Assembly (NCBI GenBank): GCA_964384365.1 | Contig: CAYLKF010000001.1 | Span: forward strand, 212,079 to 276,078 | Length of the DNA: 64,000 nucleotides | From: an uncultured Pseudomonadota bacterium | GTDB taxonomy: Bacteria > UBA10199 > JADFYH01 | Reading direction: 5' to 3' | Shown: piece by piece, positions 3,861-12,543 of the stretch | How positions within the stretch are numbered: the stretch's first letter is position 1 | How the letters are laid out: each line of letters starts with the position of its first letter | Notes under the pieces: model-generated | What the model was told of the DNA's origin: nothing | What the model saw: the letters and a program-made list of their open reading frames with translations, nothing else | The model's database searches: none | Position numbers and translations under genes: made by a program

Positions 3861-6800
3861 CTAATCTAATTTTTGGGTCAATTCACCTGCAATCATCTCC
3901 GCCTGCTTCAACACCATCTCCGTTGCCAAAGCTTGCATATCGGGTGGATAGCCATATTGGCGAAGCGTTCTTTTTACAGCAACTTTGAGTTGGGCACGTA
4001 CGCTTTCTTTGATAGTCCAATCAATCGAAGCGTTTTGGCGGATTTTTTCGGTTAAGACTACCGCCAATTCTCGTAATTTATCTTTGCCTAGAAGTTCTCT
4101 TGCGCTTTGGTTATCTGCAACAGCAGTATAAAAAGCGTATTCGTGATCGGAAAGTCCCAAAGTTTTAGGCTCTTCATCGATTGATTTGATATCTTTCGCA
4201 AGCTTGATCAGTTCTTCAATCACTTCTGCAGCCGTGATAATTTTACTGTGATAGCGCTTGATGGAATCTTCCAGCATTTCCAAAAGATGTTTGCCTTGGA
4301 TCAAATTTTTCTTCAGTCGTACTTTGATTTCGTCATTCAGAATTTTTTTGAGGGTTTCCAGAGCGATATTCTTGTGCTCCATGTTTTTGATTTCGAGCAA
4401 GAATTCTTCCGATAAAATTGAAATATCGGGTTTCTTAATTCCTGCAGCATCGAACACATCTACTACTTGAGTAGAAACTAGGGCTCGATCAATCAATTGC
4501 CGAATGGTTGTTTCCATTTCTTCATCATTTTTACCGGAGCCCGTGCTGTCAAACTTCACCAATCTCGCTTTCACCGCCTGAAAATAGGCGACTTCCTCTT
4601 TGGCATCCATCGCTTGTTCATGCGGAACAGAAATGGCAAAAGCTTTAGAAAGTGCAGTGACTTCATCAATGAATCGTTTCTTCCCTTTTTCTAAGCCCAA
4701 GATATGCTCTTCCGCAGAAAGGATGAGAGAAAGTTTTTGGGAAGTATTGGCTGAAAAATAATTTTCGTAATTAAAACCGGAAAACATTTGAGAAACCACT
4801 TCGAGCTTTTCCAACAGGAGAGCCACTGCTTTTTCTTGAGTGACTGCTGGATCGCCTTTGCCGCCACTATCCGAATAAAACGAGAGAGCTTTTTTCAAAT
4901 CTGAAGCAATCCCCAGATAATCCACTACCAAACCGCCTTTTTTATCTTTATAAACACGATTCACACGTGCAATTGCCTGCATCAAGTTATGACCTTGCAT
5001 CGGCTTATCAATGTATAAAGTATGCAAACAAGGCGCATCGAAACCGGTCAGCCACATATCCCGCACAATCACCAGCTTTAAAGGATCTTCCGGATTTTTG
5101 AGGCGGGAGGCTAAAGTTCTGCGTTGTTCCTTAGTAGTATGATGTTTGGAAAGTTCAGGGCCATCGCTGGAGGCAGCCGTCATCACTACTTTGATGAAAC
5201 CTTTGGAAAGATCTTCGCTCTGCCATTCAGGCCTCAGTTGAATGATGGCATCGTAAAGAGCCACTGCAATCCGGCGAGACATCGCCACAATCATCCCTTT
5301 GCCTTCAAACACTTCTTGGCGAGCTTCAAAATGGCTCACAATATCTTTGGCAATATTTTGGATTCGATGTTCACTTCCAATTAAAGCTTCCAGTTGCGTC
5401 CATTTCGCTTTGGCTTTTTGCATTTCCGATAAATCTTCATCCGACAATTCTTTATCTAATTCTTCGACCAATTTTTTGCCTTCTGAACTTAATTCCACTT
5501 TGGCAAGACGACTTTCATAATAGATGCGAACCGTCGCTTCATCTTCCACCGCTTTGGCAATATCGTAAATATCGACGTAAGCGCCAAACACTGCTGGCGT
5601 GTTGACATCCGTCCCTTCAATAGGCGTTCCCGTAAATCCTAGATAGGTTGCATTCGGCAAAGCATCGCGCATGTATTTAGCAAAACCATAAACGAGCTTT
5701 TGTCCAATCACATTGCCTTGGGCATCTTTTTCATCCACCGTTTTGGGTTTGAAACCATATTGCGTGCGATGGGCTTCATCGGCAATCACGACGATATTAC
5801 TTCGATTGGAAAGCTCCTCATACACATTACCTTCTTCCGGTTGAAACTTTTGAATGGTGGTAAAAACCACGCCACCCGAGGCTACCTTGAGAAGGTTTTT
5901 CAGATCTTTTCTATCTTTGGCCTGAACAGGATCTTGCCTCAGCAGTTGTTTGGAGGCCGCAAAGGTATCAAACAATTGATCATCCAGATCATTGCGATCG
6001 GTAATCACCAGAATAGTAGGATTATTTAAAGCGCGTACAATCTTGCCCGTCGCAAAAACCATGGTGAGCGACTTGCCAGAACCTTGCGTGTGCCAAACCA
6101 CGCCGCCTTTTCGATCTCCTGTTTCAGAACTCGCGCGCAAAACGGAGTCGACTGCTTTATTGACGGCATAATATTGATGATAGGCCGCCACTTTCTTTAC
6201 TGTTTCAATGCTGGTGATACCTGTTTGAGGATCTTCTTTTTTATGTTTCTCAAAGACGATGAAATTTTGAATCAAATCCAAAAGAGTTTTTTTATTCAGC
6301 ATGCCCTGGATTAAAATTTCCAGCTGGCTCACTAGGTGAGAAGCCTCTGCCTTCCCATCCACCGATTTCCACGCCATGAAGCGACTGTAATCCGAAGAAA
6401 TGGTTCCCGTTTTCGCTTCCAATCCATCAGAAATCACCACGAAGCTGTTGTAGGTGAATAAAGAAGGGATGCTGCTTTTATAGGTTCTGAATTGATCAAA
6501 GGCAGATTTAATCGTGGCGTTTTCATCTGCAGGATTTTTGAGTTCGATCACCATGAGCGGCAAACCATTCACGAAGAGAATAATATCCGGACGTTTGTTC
6601 TGGTTGTTTTCGATGACTGTGAATTGATTGACGATGCAGAAATCATTATTCTCCGGATTTTCGAAATCAATTAGCCATACGTAGTCTCCACGTTCTTCAG
6701 AACCTTCACGTACCAATACATTCACGCCTTCGATGAGCATACGGTGAAAACTTTCGTTATTGTTCATTAATTCGGGAGAATGAATGCGTTGAACTTGCCT

Positions 6801-7013
6801 GAATGCTTCTTCACGCGCTTCTTTTGAAACCTTGGGATTGATGCGATCAATGGCTTCTTTGAGTTTATCGATTAAGAGAACGTCCTCAAAATTCGAACGC
6901 AGTGGATTTTTTTCTCCTGCCGCAATTTCAGGACCGTAGAAGTATTGATAACCTTGCTTTTGCAAAAGCTGGATGGAGAATTCTTCGATGTGGGATTCGG
7001 TGAGGAGAGTCAT
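3861..7013 (-). CDS. hsdR: Type I restriction enzyme R subunit (HsdR)
   Basis: Walker A TQGSGKS and DEAH box VVIADEAHR. The track start at 7028 is a TTG; I prefer ATG at 7013..7011, which overlaps the upstream gene's TGA stop (ATGA) and has a G-rich stretch about 7 nt upstream. Confidence 0.9.
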   Translation of the reverse strand: MTLLTESHIEEFSIQLLQKQGYQYFYGPEIAAGEKNPLRSNFEDVLLIDKLKEAIDRINPKVSKEAREEAFRQVQRIHSPELMNNNESFHRMLIEGVNVLVREGSEERGDYVWLIDFENPENNDFCIVNQFTVIENNQNKRPDIILFVNGLPLMVIELKNPADENATIKSAFDQFRTYKSSIPSLFTYNSFVVISDGLEAKTGTISSDYSRFMAWKSVDGKAEASHLVSQLEILIQGMLNKKTLLDLIQNFIVFEKHKKEDPQTGITSIETVKKVAAYHQYYAVNKAVDSVLRASSETGDRKGGVVWHTQGSGKSLTMVFATGKIVRALNNPTILVITDRNDLDDQLFDTFAASKQLLRQDPVQAKDRKDLKNLLKVASGGVVFTTIQKFQPEEGNVYEELSNRSNIVVIADEAHRTQYGFKPKTVDEKDAQGNVIGQKLVYGFAKYMRDALPNATYLGFTGTPIEGTDVNTPAVFGAYVDIYDIAKAVEDEATVRIYYESRLAKVELSSEGKKLVEELDKELSDEDLSEMQKAKAKWTQLEALIGSEHRIQNIAKDIVSHFEARQEVFEGKGMIVAMSRRIAVALYDAIIQLRPEWQSEDLSKGFIKVVMTAASSDGPELSKHHTTKEQRRTLASRLKNPEDPLKLVIVRDMWLTGFDAPCLHTLYIDKPMQGHNLMQAIARVNRVYKDKKGGLVVDYLGIASDLKKALSFYSDSGGKGDPAVTQEKAVALLLEKLEVVSQMFSGFNYENYFSANTSQKLSLILSAEEHILGLEKGKKRFIDEVTALSKAFAISVPHEQAMDAKEEVAYFQAVKARLVKFDSTGSGKNDEEMETTIRQLIDRALVSTQVVDVFDAAGIKKPDISILSEEFLLEIKNMEHKNIALETLKKILNDEIKVRLKKNLIQGKHLLEMLEDSIKRYHSKIITAAEVIEELIKLAKDIKSIDEEPKTLGLSDHEYAFYTAVADNQSARELLGKDKLRELAVVLTEKIRQNASIDWTIKESVRAQLKVAVKRTLRQYGYPPDMQALATEMVLKQAEMIAGELTQKLD

Positions 7014-8053
7014 AACTCTACCCCCCAAATATTTACTGATTTCGCATCAAACAAATTAACCTTACATTTGAATGATGAGTGAATGGATTTTATATGTTTT
7101 ATATCTTTTTCAGAATAAACACCTATATAAACACTCCATAATTTGGAATCTATATCTTGTTTAGATGCTTTGTTGATAGCATCAATAATATGTTTGTCGT
7201 AATCTCCGAAATTAAAACCAAAAGTGATTAATGAACCTTCTATTGAAGAAAGTTTTTTGTAACAAAAATCAAGATATTGATTGTGTAAAATATGAGAAAG
7301 TTTTTGTTCTCCATCTCCTGCTGTTACAAATACAGGGTATTCCTTATTTTCCATTCTTGTTTTAATATTTTTTAACAAATAATTTCCGTCGTAGATTTCC
7401 TTACTTATTGCAGTGCCACTATCAAATAAATGTAATGCACCGTGTAAGTAATGCACATGTTGTTCCGTACGATTATTACCCCATTCGAGATCGCCGGCTT
7501 CAGCCTCGGCATTTTTATCATCTTCATCATTTATGAAATATTCTCTACCGAAACCGTCTATGATGTTGGCAATACCATCTTGCGAACTCATCAAAACCCA
7601 ATAAAGCAACAAATCGTAATTTGTTGTAAATACATGGCCGTCATTATCAAGATACTCCTTAAGAAATGTTGCACAAAGATTTATTCTATTTTGAGGAATT
7701 TTAAAAATATGCTCAGGATGCAACTGAGAAACGGCATCAATTAAATTTTTCTTTAATGACTCGCTAGCGGCCTTTATTGTACTAGCTAAATTTTGATCTT
7801 TAGAAAACTCAGTGGCGAGTGCGCAAAACACGTCAAGCTCCCTCATGATTTGTTCAAAATTGTATGTTTTAATTATATCAAAAAGTTTCTTTAAAAACTT
7901 ATTATCCGTTTTAAGAAGAAAATCACTTAGGGCGTTATACGAAAATATGGCTTTATCATAAGCCATACTGAAACCATTACCTAACAGTAAGTGTTTAGCT
8001 CTTTTTTTCTTATTCAAATAATTAATAATGTCAGAATACTTTTTAAGCTCCAT
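7010..8053 (-). CDS. SIR2-like (ThsA / SIR2_2 / DUF4917-type) putative NAD+-consuming effector
   Basis: Four motifs in the canonical order: Gly-rich loop LLLGNGFSMAY, FTTNYDLL, HYLHGALH, ITFGFNFGDYD, matching the ThsA SIR2 motifs GAGxS / TTNYD / HGD / GFSFxD as I recall them. Sampled lines give about 25-33% G+C, lower than hsdR. Confidence 0.6.
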   Translation of the reverse strand: MELKKYSDIINYLNKKKRAKHLLLGNGFSMAYDKAIFSYNALSDFLLKTDNKFLKKLFDIIKTYNFEQIMRELDVFCALATEFSKDQNLASTIKAASESLKKNLIDAVSQLHPEHIFKIPQNRINLCATFLKEYLDNDGHVFTTNYDLLLYWVLMSSQDGIANIIDGFGREYFINDEDDKNAEAEAGDLEWGNNRTEQHVHYLHGALHLFDSGTAISKEIYDGNYLLKNIKTRMENKEYPVFVTAGDGEQKLSHILHNQYLDFCYKKLSSIEGSLITFGFNFGDYDKHIIDAINKASKQDIDSKLWSVYIGVYSEKDIKHIKSIHSSFKCKVNLFDAKSVNIWGVEL

Positions 8054-8054
8054 G

Positions 8055-8702
8055 TTATTCTGTCTCTACATTAAACATCTTACATTCAACCGCATAAGCT
8101 CGTGGATCTATGTTATAAAGTATTTCACTAGCTAGATACGAATATTCTCCCATTACAAACTCACCAAATGAATCATCCCAAAATTCATTAAAATCTGAAT
8201 TGTCTTGGTATTCAGAAATTTTCTCCTCAGTTTGTGCTACAGTTGTAAGGGGTGATGATGTTTCAAATCCTCTAATTAATAAAGAAGCCACAATTTCAGT
8301 GGAATCGATCAAAAATTCTTTTGCTAAATGATCAATTTTATTGTTCCTATTTTTTAATTCCTCAATAGTCATACCATGAGAAGTTGAGCCAATATCGTTA
8401 CGTAAATTTCCCATCTGCTGGCCAATAGTTGCCAGAGATCTTGAAATTTGATTGACGAGTTCTTCGCTTTTATAACCAATGGCTATAAAAGCACTTTTCA
8501 AAACCGCATTCATATTTGAGGTGTTTGGCAAGGTAACATCTTTAATTTTACAAATTTCCTTCCCTATCGTTTCAAGAAGAGCTTTTGCATTTTCAAGTGA
8601 TAAGCTGAAATCAGTTTCAGCATATGCTTCTATGCGGCTTACAAAAACCTCAATATCTTTCCATCTCCCGTGTTGCTCTATGACAGCTTTTAGTTTCTGC
8701 AT
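8055..8702 (-). CDS. Hypothetical 215-aa protein, partner of the SIR2-like gene; acidic/aromatic C-terminal tail
   Basis: ATG overlaps the hsdS stop (TAATG); its stop lies 1 nt before the SIR2-like ATG. No catalytic motif recognised. C-terminus EYQDNSDFNEFWDDSFGEFVMGEY is acidic and aromatic-rich. Confidence 0.6.
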   Translation of the reverse strand: MQKLKAVIEQHGRWKDIEVFVSRIEAYAETDFSLSLENAKALLETIGKEICKIKDVTLPNTSNMNAVLKSAFIAIGYKSEELVNQISRSLATIGQQMGNLRNDIGSTSHGMTIEELKNRNNKIDHLAKEFLIDSTEIVASLLIRGFETSSPLTTVAQTEEKISEYQDNSDFNEFWDDSFGEFVMGEYSYLASEILYNIDPRAYAVECKMFNVETE

Positions 8703-9928
8703 TAGAGTGCTTCCTCTTCATACTTCACCCTCACCTCACCACTCATCAGTTTAGGTAAAAGAGTGTCGCGAAGTTTTTCTAAATTTCTTATTTGTTGGTG
8801 ATTCGAATCAATTTTTTCCCAGGCATTTTCGGTAAAATTACAAAAAGTATGTAGGATCTCTTTTGAAGGTAATTGAAACTCAACAGTTTCAATGTCAGAT
8901 GGTTTTAGAGATGGATAAGTAGAAGTTGAAGCTTCAGCAATTGTGCTTAGATATTCCGTCATTTCATTCTGAGTAAGGAGATAATAAATAAAATGCGGAT
9001 TAATAGCACTGCAAGTGAGTACGCAAAAACCAGTTGAAACAACTAAGTTATTAGGCGGATTTTTAATAAATCCATAATGTTTATGATTAGGCCTGACTGT
9101 TGAAACGATAATATCATTATGTTGAACTAACCTTTTGGCCCGACTAGGAGAATCTTTTAGGGAATAAATTTCAAATTTTTCAATTTTCCCTTCTGTAATA
9201 GAACCAGTATCCAAATATTTAATAATTTCGTAAGGATGATCCGTCCTGAGTGTAGAAATATTAGTTTTTGCAATGTCACCTATAGTAATATTTGGCCAAC
9301 TTGGATTAGCCTCCTCCACAAACCACTGCCGAAAAAGTGTTTCAGCAATAGCTTCTAGGGTTTTGTTTTGGCGGTGGAGGAGGTCAATTTTGTCATCCAG
9401 GCTGGAGAGAATTTCGGCGATGGCTTTTTGTTCGGGGAGAGGTGGTAAAAAAAATGCATAATTTTTTATTGCCGTTGGAGAAGTATGTTTTATTGATGTT
9501 CCAGATGATGCGCTGACAATATATTGTTGATACTCTCTAGTTCGCATTAACCAATAAATAAATTCTCTATCCGTATTATTATTATTATTATTATTTTTAA
9601 ATTTAACTAAACCAACTCGTTGATTATGGAGAAAAATGACACCTTCCATATAAGGTATCTTTGCTGTATACCCTAAAGTATCACCGTCTTTACTTAAATC
9701 GGTCATAGTAACAATAATGTCGTCTGGTGTAAGAATATATTCTTTTGGAAAATCAGAGGATGAAAAATACTTAAACTTATCCTGCTTAAACCCACCCCCA
9801 ATATGAAAGTTTCCAGGGGTAACTAGAATTTTATCTGTTTTTTCTTGAGTTATATATTTTCCCTTAAAAGCATAACCATGCTTTATATCTATGACTTCAC
9901 CTAATGTTGTTTCTTCCCACTCACCCAT
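8702..9928 (-). CDS. hsdS: Type I restriction-modification specificity subunit (HsdS), two target-recognition domains
   Basis: Conserved central region LPPLPEQKAIAEIL...LLHRQN and C-terminal repeat LPSKEIL...LEKLRDTLLPKLMSGEV. Start overlaps the hsdM stop by 8 nt. Confidence 0.9.
   Translation of the reverse strand: MGEWEETTLGEVIDIKHGYAFKGKYITQEKTDKILVTPGNFHIGGGFKQDKFKYFSSSDFPKEYILTPDDIIVTMTDLSKDGDTLGYTAKIPYMEGVIFLHNQRVGLVKFKNNNNNNNTDREFIYWLMRTREYQQYIVSASSGTSIKHTSPTAIKNYAFFLPPLPEQKAIAEILSSLDDKIDLLHRQNKTLEAIAETLFRQWFVEEANPSWPNITIGDIAKTNISTLRTDHPYEIIKYLDTGSITEGKIEKFEIYSLKDSPSRAKRLVQHNDIIVSTVRPNHKHYGFIKNPPNNLVVSTGFCVLTCSAINPHFIYYLLTQNEMTEYLSTIAEASTSTYPSLKPSDIETVEFQLPSKEILHTFCNFTENAWEKIDSNHQQIRNLEKLRDTLLPKLMSGEVRVKYEEEAL
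9577..9597 (-). repeat. (AAT)7 trinucleotide repeat inside hsdS encoding a poly-Asn run
   Basis: Plus strand reads (ATT)x7; minus-strand translation ...KFKNNNNNNNTDREF in the first target-recognition domain. Confidence 0.85.
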
Positions 9929-11438
9929 TCAAAACCACCTTCGCTAAATTCTCTAAAATACGTTCATTGAGCTTAACTTCTTCTTTCATCTGAGCTTCCA
10001 ACTCCGCTTTGAGAACGGTAAAGCGTTCTGCAAAATTGAAATCATCTTCAATATCTTCCAAGCCCACATAGCGGCCTGGGGTCAGCACATAATCCAACTC
10101 CTGCACACGCTGGATGCTAGCTGAATTGCAGAATCCTTTTATGTCTTGATATCCATCGTCTTCCGATCGCCAGTTATGATAAGTTTGAGCAATTTTTTGG
10201 ATGTCTTCGTGAGAAAATTCTTTTGTGCGTCGATTGATGAGATGGCCGAGGTTACGGGCATCGATAAATAGAATTTCTTCCCGGCGATAGGTTTTGCCAC
10301 GTCGCAAAAACCATAAAGAAGCGGGGATTTGCGTATTCAGAAACAATTTGGCGGGCAAGTTAACGATGCAATCCACTAAGCGAGCTTCGATCAGTGCTTT
10401 GCGGATTTCGCCTTCGCCGGAGGATTTAGAAGTAAGCGCCCCTTTCGCCATGACAAAACCGGCATGGCCACTCGGAGATAAATGATAGAGGAAATGTTGA
10501 ATCCAGGCATAGTTGGCATTGCCACTGGGAGGAACGCCATATTTCCAGCGACCATCATTGCGGAGCAAATCACCGCTCCAGTCGCTATCATTAAAGGGAG
10601 GATTCGCGATGATGAAATCAGCTTTTAGATCTTTATGCGTATCGTTAAGAAAAGAACCTTCGTTGTTCCATTTCACTTGTGAGCTATCAATACCACGGAT
10701 GGCAAGATTCATTTTCGCCAAGCGCCAAGTGGTTTGATTGCTTTCTTGACCATAAATGGAAATATCGTTGATGCGGCCTTGTCGAGCTTCCACAAATTTT
10801 TCGGATTGAACAAACATTCCCCCTGAACCGCAGCAGGGGTCAAAGACTCGGCCTTTATAGGGCTCCAACATTTCTACCAGTAATTGCACAATAGAGCGAG
10901 GCGTATAGAACTGTCCCCCTTGTTTACCTTCTGCTAATGCGAATTCACCCAGAAAATATTCAAACACATGCCCCAGTATATCGGCACTGCGGGCTTTACT
11001 TTGTTCAATATCGATATTGCTAAATTCATCGATGAGTTTGCCTAAGTTGGCAGAATCTAAATTTCCTCGGGCAAAAACTTTTGGGAGGACTCCTTTGAGG
11101 GAAGGATTATCGCGCTCGATAGCATCCATTGCAGCATCGATGTCTTTTCCTATCTCTGGCAGCTTGGCCCGTGACTGCAAGTAGTTCCAACGCGCGGAAG
11201 GAGGCACAAAAAAAACATTCTTGGCTTTGTATTCGTCACGATCTTCCGGGTCGGCTCCCGCGAACTCTCCTTCGCCTTTTTTGAGTTGTTCATAAATTTC
11301 TTCAAAGGAACTTGAAATATATTTTAGAAAAACCAACCCCAAGACGACATGCTTGTATTCTGCCGCATCAATGTTTTTGCGAAGTTTATCCGCCGCTTCC
11401 CAAAGTTTTTTTTCTAATGATTCAATTTTTGAAGTCAT
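9921..11438 (-). CDS. hsdM: Type I restriction-modification N6-adenine DNA methyltransferase (HsdM)
   Basis: Motif I DPCCGSGGMF and motif IV FIIANPPFN. ATG at 11438..11436 with AGAGGGAG just upstream. Confidence 0.92.
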   Translation of the reverse strand: MTSKIESLEKKLWEAADKLRKNIDAAEYKHVVLGLVFLKYISSSFEEIYEQLKKGEGEFAGADPEDRDEYKAKNVFFVPPSARWNYLQSRAKLPEIGKDIDAAMDAIERDNPSLKGVLPKVFARGNLDSANLGKLIDEFSNIDIEQSKARSADILGHVFEYFLGEFALAEGKQGGQFYTPRSIVQLLVEMLEPYKGRVFDPCCGSGGMFVQSEKFVEARQGRINDISIYGQESNQTTWRLAKMNLAIRGIDSSQVKWNNEGSFLNDTHKDLKADFIIANPPFNDSDWSGDLLRNDGRWKYGVPPSGNANYAWIQHFLYHLSPSGHAGFVMAKGALTSKSSGEGEIRKALIEARLVDCIVNLPAKLFLNTQIPASLWFLRRGKTYRREEILFIDARNLGHLINRRTKEFSHEDIQKIAQTYHNWRSEDDGYQDIKGFCNSASIQRVQELDYVLTPGRYVGLEDIEDDFNFAERFTVLKAELEAQMKEEVKLNERILENLAKVVLNG

Positions 11439-11536
11439 GCTCCCTCTTTATTAAAAGAAAAATCACTCATTTTTGGAATGAGGAATTTCTACTAAAGCTC
11501 CAAGCTTTGAAAAGAAAGATCTATTTTCTCTGATCA

Positions 11537-11818
11537 CTACCTTCTCATATCAGGCCCCACCGTTACAAATTCACCCAAGCTTTCTAAACCTTCTCGAATA
11601 TGCGCGTTTCGCACATGCTCGAAGGTAACTTGGGCGCCCCACTCTTCGATAAAATTAAACTGATAAGTTTCGCTTGGATTTTGTTGAAATTCAAAACCCA
11701 AACATCCCGCACTTTTTAAAGCCGCAGCAATGGTGATACTCAAAAAATTCTTCATCGCTTCTTCTTGACCCGGCAAGGCTTTATAAAGTGAAATCATCCT
11801 CACAGTTTTACGGCGCAT
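11537..11818 (-). CDS. Antibiotic-biosynthesis-monooxygenase (ABM) family protein
   Basis: About 93 aa with an ABM-like pattern (ISLYKALPGQEEA...GCLGFEF...FIEEWGAQVTFEHVRNAH). The track start is a TTG at 11830; first ATG at 11818 has GGAG 6 nt upstream. Its 3' end is the right direct repeat. Confidence 0.6.
   Translation of the reverse strand: MRRKTVRMISLYKALPGQEEAMKNFLSITIAAALKSAGCLGFEFQQNPSETYQFNFIEEWGAQVTFEHVRNAHIREGLESLGEFVTVGPDMRR
11538..11626. repeat. Right direct repeat (the intact 3' end of the ABM gene)
   Basis: 86/89 identity to 3735..3823. Confidence 0.85.
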
Positions 11819-11850
11819 TTTTTTCTCCAATTTACAAAATTAATTTTGAT

Positions 11851-11882
11851 AAAAAAAGGCCCTACAGAATTTCTGTAGGGCC
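11851..11882 (-). terminator. Intrinsic terminator 3 nt downstream of tRNA-Leu
   Basis: 10-bp perfect stem GGCCCTACAG / CTGTAGGGCC with 5-nt loop; the plus-strand A-run 11851..11857 is the U-tract on the minus strand. Confidence 0.7.
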
Positions 11883-11884
11883 AG

Positions 11885-11970
11885 TGCCCGAGGCCGGAAT
11901 CGAACCGGCACGACCGTTTCCAGTCACAGGATTTTAAGTCCTGTGTGTCTACCAATTCCACCACTCGGGC
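11885..11970 (-). tRNA. tRNA-Leu (anticodon UAA), long variable arm
   Basis: Cloverleaf folded by hand: acceptor GCCCGAG/CTCGGGC, anticodon stem CAGGA/TCCTG with loop CTTAAAA, T-stem GCCGG/CCGGC with loop TTCGATT, discriminator A. Confidence 0.85.
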
Positions 11971-12038: not shown

Positions 12039-12404
12039 TCAACTTTTATCTTCTAGATTTTTAATTAATCCGCTAAGCATTTTGGAAATTTCAACACATT
12101 CTTGTCGAAATATTTTATATTGCTCCGACGAAATGGATTGAAGATCCAGTCCAAGTTCTAAAAGGGGCACACACTCATAAGTTGATCCTCTTGCTATAGT
12201 GTAAAAATTTTTCTTTTCTTTTAAAGACTCTCTCCCCCCACCTTCTGCTATGTTTAAAGTAATACTCATCGAAGCCCTGCGAAGTTGATCACACCACGAA
12301 AAATTATTTTTTGAAAATGGGCTTATTACTTTTATTATTTGTTTAGAAAAAACAAGCGCCCTCTGATAAACATGTAACTTTTCAAATGAGAACTGTTCGT
12401 CCAT
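12039..12404 (-). CDS. Four-helix-bundle protein (23S rRNA intervening-sequence protein / Avd-like family)
   Basis: Family-typical pattern LHVYQRALVF...DQLRRASMSITLNIAEGGGRES...FYTIARGSTYEC. Confidence 0.8.
   Translation of the reverse strand: MDEQFSFEKLHVYQRALVFSKQIIKVISPFSKNNFSWCDQLRRASMSITLNIAEGGGRESLKEKKNFYTIARGSTYECVPLLELGLDLQSISSEQYKIFRQECVEISKMLSGLIKNLEDKS

Positions 12405-12471: not shown

Positions 12472-12543
<72 letters not shown>

Follow-up and report, generated by a model that had tools for sequence, protein, structure and literature searches.

Are the two genes that lie between hsdS and hsdR in a Type I restriction-modification (R-M) operon one defence module, or are they two separate additions to it? 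The question is raised by a locus at 3861-11438 of a 64,000-nucleotide (nt) stretch of DNA from an uncultured Pseudomonadota bacterium (GenBank assembly GCA_964384365.1, contig CAYLKF010000001.1), which as a whole is called the window here. From the listing of open reading frames (ORFs) and a reading of the sequence, the locus consists of five same-direction minus-strand genes in the order hsdM, hsdS, a gene for a 215-aa protein (AbiC215), a gene for a 347-aa protein of the DUF4917 family and hsdR (Table 1). A first-pass annotation, made from the sequence alone, had given the same order and coordinates, all of which are confirmed in the ORFs and in Pfam, and had proposed that the two inserted genes form a cassette. 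Our analysis indicates a different organization. The locus is probably a Type I R-M operon to which two extra layers have been added independently of each other, and not one two-gene module.

The frame of the operon is not in doubt. HsdM, HsdS with two target-recognition domains and HsdR are encoded together, and Pfam and PADLOC both identify all three subunits, with E values from 1e-27 down to 0, so that the annotated Type I R-M operon with embedded genes stands; as an observation it is far beyond chance. The coupling at the junctions that had been described could be read in the sequence at each of them: the last 8 nt of hsdM are shared with hsdS, TAATG is made up of the hsdS stop and the AbiC215 start, a single nucleotide separates the AbiC215 stop from the DUF4917 start (TAA-C-ATG), and the DUF4917 stop and the hsdR start form ATGA. 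The hsdR start was taken as the ATG at 7013, where the alignments of homologues begin; the ORF listing runs on to a TTG at 7028.

Linkage between the two inserted genes

Both inserted genes were surveyed separately. A scan for DUF4917 in one genome per GTDB species gave 422 loci, the best 80 of which were fetched (47-68% identity, from very diverse phyla; some counts are on 79). The survey of AbiC215 comprises 84 loci, four from three exact-protein look-ups and 80 from metagenomes, with position counts on 79.

The cassette model that goes back to the first-pass annotation makes AbiC215 and DUF4917 one abortive-infection unit, a HEPN sensor or regulator plus a SIR2 NADase, which is kept latent under the Type I complex or signalled via it. 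The window itself agrees with such a unit, as the two genes are 1 nt apart in one translationally coupled operon and share a low GC content at third codon positions (GC3) of 0.25-0.26, and the two genes also stand together in loci L007 and L144. The linkage counts, however, strongly disfavour it. An AbiC215 homologue was found near DUF4917 in just one of the 80 DUF4917 loci (L007, with the order hsdS-DUF4917-AbiC...hsdR), and a close DUF4917 homologue near AbiC215 in one of the 84 AbiC215 loci (L144, 66% identity, upstream of AbiC215); the latter count rises to two with L143, which carries a distant 427-aa DUF4917 relative of 27% identity. The gene order is also reversed between these cases, DUF4917 preceding AbiC in L007 and L144 and following it in the window. 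Dozens of AbiC215 operons have no SIR2 gene, and the closest relatives of the window DUF4917 (66-69% identity) lie in or beside hsd operons that lack AbiC215. Two of the loci have the orders hsdM-..-hsdS-DUF4917-TIR-hsdR (P0005) and hsdM-TIR-..-hsdS-DUF4917-hsdR (P0019), and in a third (P0003) DUF4917 is found just downstream of the hsd operon, in an island with GmrSD and AbiEii. Since co-occurrence is this rare from both sides, the two genes assort independently; the cassette model is therefore rejected, and we consider it very improbable.

The shared base composition does not mark a joint insertion. In the window, GC3 is 0.25-0.26 in hsdS (0.25), AbiC215 and DUF4917 compared with 0.42-0.43 in hsdM and hsdR, and the low GC of these three central genes was considered as a sign of recent cassette insertion. 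This candidate explanation was rejected, as GC3 is low in hsdS and AbiC215 across 43 related loci, with means of 0.36 for hsdS and 0.38 for AbiC215 versus 0.50 for hsdM and 0.49 for hsdR. The depression belongs to the operon family, so the low GC3 of the window says nothing specific on this insertion. The pattern suggests that the centre of the operon has been exchanged between hosts more often than its conserved ends. In high-GC hosts, for instance, GC3 is ~0.5 for hsdS and AbiC215 versus ~0.8 for hsdM and hsdR.

In the reading that we favour, AbiC215 would be the first layer, a stable, co-inherited fourth gene that sits just after hsdS and before hsdR in one Type I clade. DUF4917 would be the second layer, a self-contained SIR2-type enzyme that moved as a single gene, landed in the slot between AbiC215 and hsdR and is presumably expressed from the hsd operon through translational coupling.

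The 215-aa gene next to hsdS

Profile searches with both inserted proteins, a check that the first-pass annotation had recommended, returned families for each, including the 215-aa protein that it had left unnamed. AbiC215 matches Abi_C (PF14355) above the cut-off (Table 1), which we take to be the Pfam model of the AbiJ-type HEPN domain. Among 24 homologues (~55-62% identity), the residues L100-R101-N102-x6-H109-G110 are invariant and a C-terminal block at residues 165-205, FNEFWDD..GEF.MG.YSY.ASEIL, is strongly conserved. The spacing between Arg and His, Rx7H, is one residue longer than the canonical Rx4-6H. The structural model is all-helical save for a short beta-hairpin near the C-terminus, and it is uncertain around the motif. 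No ATPase family was matched in the profile searches, and a search of PDB sequences with the AbiC215 profile gave chance-level coiled-coil matches only. We assign AbiC215 as a HEPN protein with moderate confidence.

The position of the gene is nearly fixed. Every AbiC215 locus with enough sequence has the order hsdM...hsdS-AbiC215...hsdR, with HsdM 73-85% and HsdR mostly 69-77% identical to the proteins of the window, and the order hsdM-hsdS-Abi_C-hsdR is present in three NCBI/ENA genome or metagenome-assembled genome records. The end of hsdS lies at most 120 nt upstream of AbiC215 in 75 of 79 loci. Downstream of AbiC215, hsdR was found in 66 loci, or 67 with L129, whose HsdR hit is 40% identical and falls below the counting filter; where hsdR was not seen, the contig stops 0.1-2.9 kb after AbiC215 and its absence is not judgeable. 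Mantel correlations of pairwise divergence were calculated for 27 non-redundant operons, giving r values of 0.85 for AbiC215 and HsdR, 0.79 for AbiC215 and HsdM, and 0.83 for HsdM and HsdR (permutation p ~5e-4 for all three). AbiC215 thus tracks HsdR and HsdM as strongly as these track each other, which indicates that it is co-inherited with the core and has not been shuffled in.

Outside this clade the gene is scarce. Apart from one weak partial hit, AbiC215 was absent from 62 loci found via HsdM in viral contigs, where HsdM is 48-79% and HsdR 41-62% identical and hsdS is followed by hsdR or other genes. A protein search of 72,556 plasmids gave one weak match of 27% identity, so plasmids do not appear to be the habitat of AbiC215. 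A comparison of HsdR between operons with and without AbiC215, made in search of a possible docking surface, revealed scattered differences (residues 101-150, 501-550, 801-850 and others), which are confounded by phylogeny. As far as sequence comparison can tell, AbiC215 behaves as a clade-specific conserved fourth gene of one Type I clade.

Both position and domain recall PrrC, with which the first-pass annotation had compared the cassette. The nuclease domain of PrrC is a HEPN domain, and the R-M enzyme keeps the protein latent until the T4 Stp peptide releases it (PMC3710099). AbiC215 occupies the same place as prrC in EcoprrI (hsdM-hsdS-prrC-hsdR) and has a HEPN-superfamily domain with conserved Arg and His. 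The linkage of PrrC to Type I genes is reported to be near-exclusive (bioRxiv 10.1101/2024.01.29.577857), and the same can be said of AbiC215, directly after hsdS in 75/79 loci, whereas DUF4917 has no such linkage, most of its loci being outside hsd operons. For a locus of this kind the comparison with PrrC is a good one; it is the 215-aa gene, however, and not the SIR2 gene, that has the PrrC-like position and the close linkage to hsd. There are also clear differences. AbiC215 has half the size of PrrC, contains no ABC-ATPase or P-loop domain and belongs to another HEPN family (AbiJ/Abi_C), and the Type I enzyme of the window is only distantly related to Type IC, its HsdR matching that of the Type IC enzyme EcoR124I at 4e-37 over residues 106-496. 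Because it lacks the ABC-ATPase, AbiC215 falls outside the PrrC family, although it may act in a similar way.

We propose that AbiC215 acts in the manner of a stripped-down PrrC. It would be a HEPN RNase that is normally latent, or else an accessory that binds RNA, and the state of the surrounding Type I enzyme might govern its activity. When restriction is subverted, AbiC215 would cut host RNA, and the infection would be aborted. A further-reaching version is put forward here as a tentative possibility only. AbiC215 would then be the ATPase-less counterpart of PrrC, at once a minimal HEPN RNase and a true fourth Type I subunit of a widespread clade, held by HsdR or the whole enzyme and freed by phage anti-restriction. 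The gap before hsdR would be a dedicated docking site, filled here by a DUF4917 NADase, and the result would be an operon with three layers, namely restriction, cleavage of RNA and depletion of NAD+.

AbiC215 might instead be a structural or regulatory Type I subunit without catalysis, for example one that controls HsdR assembly, restriction alleviation or operon expression. Its co-inheritance with the hsd core, as strong as that of the true subunits, agrees with such a role, as do the atypical Rx7H spacing and the uncertainty of the model around the motif, and some HEPN domains are non-catalytic RNA-binding modules (PMC3710099). However, the invariance of R101, N102, H109 and G110 in the 24 homologues suggests a conserved active site, and the AbiJ family is listed among those with a conserved HEPN motif (PMC3710099). 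We regard a non-catalytic AbiC215 as possible, though rather doubtful.

In 2013 Anantharaman et al. had already drawn attention to solo AbiJ-type HEPN genes within R-M operons (PMC3710099). AbiC215 fits this class by its Abi_C match, and the class is therefore already known from comparative genomics; a literature search on AbiJ with hsdR found no experimental or mechanistic study. The 2013 account gives no clade-specific, co-diverging fourth gene at a fixed position and no adjacent cargo slot (PMC3710099), and these, in quantified form, are what is new here. AbiC215 is a better experimental lead than DUF4917, as a guard mechanism like that of PrrC can be tested directly in a gene that keeps so strictly to its place and diverges together with HsdR.

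The DUF4917 protein and its surroundings

The 347-aa protein matches the DUF4917 profile (PF16263) with 150.9 bits against a cut-off of 28, and SIR2_2 with 27.4 bits against 24.5 (Table 1). The four SIR2-type motifs that the first-pass annotation had pointed out are invariant in 25 homologues: G25-N26-G27-F28-(S29), N145-Y146-D147, H204-G205 and G279-F280..D286. That annotation had also called for structure prediction and comparison. An AlphaFold (AF2) model built from the alignment of homologues (predicted local distance difference test score, pLDDT, 75.7; predicted template-modelling score, pTM, 0.79) has a SIR2 fold, and its best solved match in Foldseek is the SIR2 subunit of SIR2-HerA, also named Nezha (E 1.4e-09 to 1e-05, template-modelling score 0.46-0.51, probability 1.0), followed by human FAM118B, SPARSA and then sirtuins, with CobB and SIRT5 only at E > 0.05. 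The protein consists essentially of one SIR2 domain with a helical insert, and no SLOG, STAND, HerA-binding or other recognisable sensor domain was found in it. It is SIR2-like by sequence, by motifs and by predicted fold.

Two characterized systems come close to this protein but do not include it. The SIR2 subunit of SIR2-HerA (PDB 8uae, 8su9, 8j4u) is the best structural match, and the FTTNYDL and LHG motifs line up in a weak profile match, but sequence identity to the window protein is 15-18%, and no HerA gene is present in the operon or the window or among the top or recurrent neighbour families in 79 DUF4917 loci. The SIR2 domain of Thoeris ThsA shares its catalytic Asn and His motifs with the window protein, but the latter has no SLOG domain, there is no TIR gene in the operon or the window, and PADLOC gave no match to the ThsA model. 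As no SLOG, HerA-binding or other sensor domain is present, we assign the locus to neither Thoeris nor SIR2-HerA. The SIR2 effectors of SIR2-HerA, Thoeris and DSR consume NAD+. By analogy with these, DUF4917 may be an NAD+-consuming effector that acts during infection; as the second layer of the operon, it would deplete NAD+ without need for the Type I complex and thereby add a further means of abortive infection.

The same protein is already a listed defence candidate. It matches the PADLOC model PDC-S21 (PDLC04960) end to end, with residues 1-343 on model positions 1-334 of 336 (E 1.1e-109, 365 bits), and this identity rests solely on the PADLOC hidden Markov model match. Other PADLOC SIR2 models are far below it (best E 7.6e-07), and NCBIfam SIR2_antiphage scores 13.8 bits against a cut-off of 500. 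The PDC models are phage defence candidates derived from "guilt-by-embedding" in BREX, DISARM and Type I R-M (Payne et al., bioRxiv 10.1101/2024.01.29.577857), and embedding in a Type I operon, as found in the window, is the source arrangement of the PDC set. PDC-S21 is listed as a single-gene candidate and only as a prediction, the PDCs having been added to PADLOC as predictions and not as tested systems (bioRxiv 10.1101/2024.01.29.577857). The main text of Payne et al. contains no discussion of PDC-S21, its mechanism or a neighbouring HEPN gene (bioRxiv 10.1101/2024.01.29.577857), our literature search found no paper that names PDC-S21, and a search on SIR2 genes within Type I R-M brought up no study of mechanism. 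The first-pass annotation had known of no described system built in this way. Given the PDC-S21 match and the derivation of that model from embedded genes, the arrangement is already catalogued as a single-gene candidate, and the solo HEPN gene has been on record since 2013. The locus is thus a known class of R-M-linked solo HEPN gene joined with an already listed single-gene SIR2 candidate. As the embedding of defence genes in R-M operons is known as well, the gain is incremental and not conceptual.

The neighbourhoods of DUF4917 are rich in restriction genes, with no fixed partner. When all genes within six positions of DUF4917 were clustered, no cluster was common to more than 14 of 79 loci. 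Among 120 immediate neighbours of at least 100 aa, the families found were Methylase_S (8), ResIII (8), Eco57I (6), N6_Mtase (5), RE_endonuc (4), N6_N4_Mtase (3), HamA (2), AbiEii (2) and Schlafen/AlbA_2 (2). Type I genes lie at most 10 kb from DUF4917 in at least 17 of 80 loci, and in 7 of those 17 loci DUF4917 is flanked by co-oriented Type I genes, with an hsdM-like gene (hsdS-like in L007) upstream and an hsdR-like gene downstream. For about three in four of the homologues sampled, no Type I gene was detected within 10 kb. The expectation that the homologues would be enriched in restriction and defence neighbourhoods was thus borne out strongly, whereas obligatory signalling through the Type I complex is argued against by the majority of DUF4917 homologues, which lie outside hsd operons. 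Judged from these neighbourhoods, DUF4917 is a free-standing, horizontally moving single gene that is linked to restriction and defence loci.

Other genes of related type were seen in such operons. TIR_2-domain genes are present in the Type I operons of the closest DUF4917 relatives, at 8150-9202 of L229, where the gene adjoins DUF4917, and at 3166-4053 of L230. These two loci prompted the idea of a Thoeris-like pairing of TIR with DUF4917, which was rejected because TIR homologues are not recurrent near DUF4917 in the surveyed loci. In L228 another SIR2_2-family gene (768-1898; 376 aa, not DUF4917) lies between hsdS and hsdR, and a 27%-identical relative of it is found in the same place in L197 (about 10869-11672). 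Type I operons thus repeatedly contain SIR2-type genes, and these come from more than one family.

Among DUF4917 proteins, only SliP (CJJ81176_0779) of Campylobacter jejuni 81-176 has been studied experimentally; its gene shares an operon with CJJ81176_0780, the gene of a Type I R subunit (PMC10421069). SliP was reported as a flagellum-secreted, NAD+- and zinc-stimulated lysine/histone deacetylase that activates neutrophils, and the first transposon phenotype at sliP was a polar effect on CJJ81176_0780 (PMC10421069). By family and context it is comparable with the window protein: both belong to DUF4917, carry the G-N-G NAD-binding motif and are encoded in an hsdR operon, and NAD+ consumption was shown for SliP in vitro. 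It differs in having been published as a secreted protein that acts on neutrophils, with a genomic context that was not read as one of defence (PMC10421069). That restriction-linked context, in which the sole experimentally studied DUF4917 protein can now be placed, suggests a restriction-linked defence origin. If AbiC215 were indeed the counterpart of PrrC, a corollary would be that SliP is primarily a restriction-linked anti-phage NADase.

SliP also raises the possibility that DUF4917 is a conventional sirtuin-like deacetylase, regulatory or host-directed like the secreted protein, with no anti-phage NADase activity and an incidental position in the hsd operon. Purified SliP, in which the G-N-G motif is also present, deacetylated lysine under stimulation by NAD+ and zinc and lowered NAD+ roughly two-fold in vitro, and it affected neutrophil activation (PMC10421069). 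We find a deacetylase of this kind improbable. The fold is nearest to the defence-type SIR2 NADases (E 1e-9), well ahead of CobB and SIRT5, and the family is spread across free-living and environmental phyla (~55-70% identity) with defence-rich neighbours, unlike a virulence factor; moreover, sliP itself is in an operon with a Type I hsdR.

DUF4917 might also act alone as a guard of the Type I enzyme, sensing HsdR or the assembled enzyme and depleting NAD+ in a PrrC-like way when phage anti-restriction disables restriction. Its location between hsdS and hsdR, often right before hsdR (the window, L003, L229 and L230), the operon of sliP with hsdR (PMC10421069), the Type I genes within 10 kb in at least 17/80 loci and the definition of PDC-S21 from embedded instances all fit this idea. 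We nevertheless judge it unlikely. Roughly three quarters of the sampled homologues are without a Type I gene within 10 kb, and their neighbours include Type II, IIG and III R-M, Hachiman, AbiE and unrelated genes. The 347 residues are taken up by the SIR2 domain and its helical insert, with no obvious docking domain. The slot before hsdR takes many unrelated systems, which fits permissive insertion.

For the two independent layers that we favour, several observations have to be set on the other side. Each scan was sampled by its 80 top-scoring loci, some of them near-duplicates. DUF4917 stands directly by hsdR in the window, L003, L229, L230 and C. jejuni SliP, and one gene away in L007 and L144; with such a recurrence in several lineages, there may be functional cross-talk with Type I enzymes. 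In at least one operon, that of L003, which possibly belongs to the same clade (HsdM 72% identical over a fragment, HsdR segments 63-82%) and whose contig ends inside hsdR, AbiC215 is missing, so that the gene may not be indispensable.

Cargo slots and flanking genes

In 23 of 66 related operons, the slot between AbiC215 and hsdR, which DUF4917 occupies in the window, contains more than 300 nt of inserted sequence. The commonest insert is RhuM/Fic (a cluster of 9 ORFs from 8 loci); the others comprise Gabija, here an AAA_15/OLD-TOPRIM protein with a UvrD helicase, Kiwa (KwaB), GmrSD, Mrr-type nucleases, an AAA+ ATPase with an S8 protease, DUF3800, Fic-HTH, the distant DUF4917 and genes of unknown family. 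A second slot lies between hsdM and hsdS, with an insert in 18 of 50 loci, most often a YhcG/DUF1016 PDDEXK nuclease. The contents of the slot before hsdR are what one would expect if defence genes are readily accepted there as cargo.

Several of these inserts are whole known or candidate systems, such as the AAA+ ATPase with S8 protease at 8689-12122 of L100, Gabija at 4935-8530 of L094 and a KwaB gene with a putative KwaA at 3893-5445 of L156. The same slot in L092 holds a weak relative of 23S_rRNA_IVP (29 bits, below the cut-off). The YhcG/DUF1016 PDDEXK gene between hsdM and hsdS encodes 352 aa (Pfam 1.1e-56) and was seen in L086, L088, L090, L091, L096, L134 and L145; in L082 a Bro-N protein is found at that place.

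If both of the proposed activities are real, the operon of the window combines three modes of defence: restriction of DNA, RNA cleavage by a HEPN protein and depletion of NAD+ by a SIR2 protein. The operon family also offers a natural series of isogenic-like variants, in which the slot is empty or holds DUF4917, Gabija, Kiwa or GmrSD. This series could be used to ask whether the embedded systems share only a promoter with the R-M enzyme or sense its state and depend on it.

Table 1. Genes of the hsd operon and the features at its upstream boundary (positions in the window).
Feature	Position	Strand	Description
hsdM	9921..11438	-	505 aa; Type I R-M methyltransferase subunit; Pfam N6_Mtase 8.8e-111, HsdM_N 7.4e-28; PADLOC MTase_I 8.2e-197
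hsdS	8702..9928	-	408 aa; specificity subunit; Pfam Methylase_S 9.7e-27, two stretches; PADLOC Specificity_I 8.3e-100
AbiC215	8055..8702	-	215 aa; putative solo AbiJ-type HEPN; Pfam Abi_C 2.7e-07, 31 bits, cut-off 24
DUF4917 / SIR2-like	7010..8053	-	347 aa; Pfam DUF4917 7.1e-44, SIR2_2 3.9e-06; PADLOC PDC-S21 1.1e-109
hsdR	3861..7013	-	1050 aa from ATG at 7013; restriction/translocase subunit; Pfam HSDR_N 1.7e-54, SWI2_SNF2 7.9e-79, T1R_D3-like, T1RH-like_C 7e-129; PADLOC REase_I 1313 bits
tRNA-Leu(taa)	11884-11970 (feature 11858..11970)	-	ARAGORN; upstream boundary of hsd region
Terminator-like hairpin of tRNA-Leu(taa)	11858-11882	-	Terminator scan; 11-bp stem, 7 GC pairs, then T-run

The operon of the window stands among ordinary genes. 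Upstream of it are tRNA-Leu(taa) with its terminator, then a 23S_rRNA_IVP gene and tRNA-Cys, and the housekeeping flanks within the window include a hybrid histidine kinase, a phosphoribosyltransferase, NDH-2, a GH18 chitinase and fumarase. Around the operon, the window contains neither an integrase nor a larger defence island. The 23S_rRNA_IVP gene (12039-12404, minus strand), ~600 nt upstream of the hsd operon, encodes a 121-aa four-helix-bundle protein (Pfam 9.8e-30) and lies between tRNA-Leu and tRNA-Cys (12472-12543). A 97-aa ORF at 11537-11830 on the minus strand, between the tRNA-Leu terminator and hsdM, has a weak match to ABM (antibiotic biosynthesis monooxygenase) of 3.4e-04, below the cut-off, and may be co-transcribed with the hsd operon.

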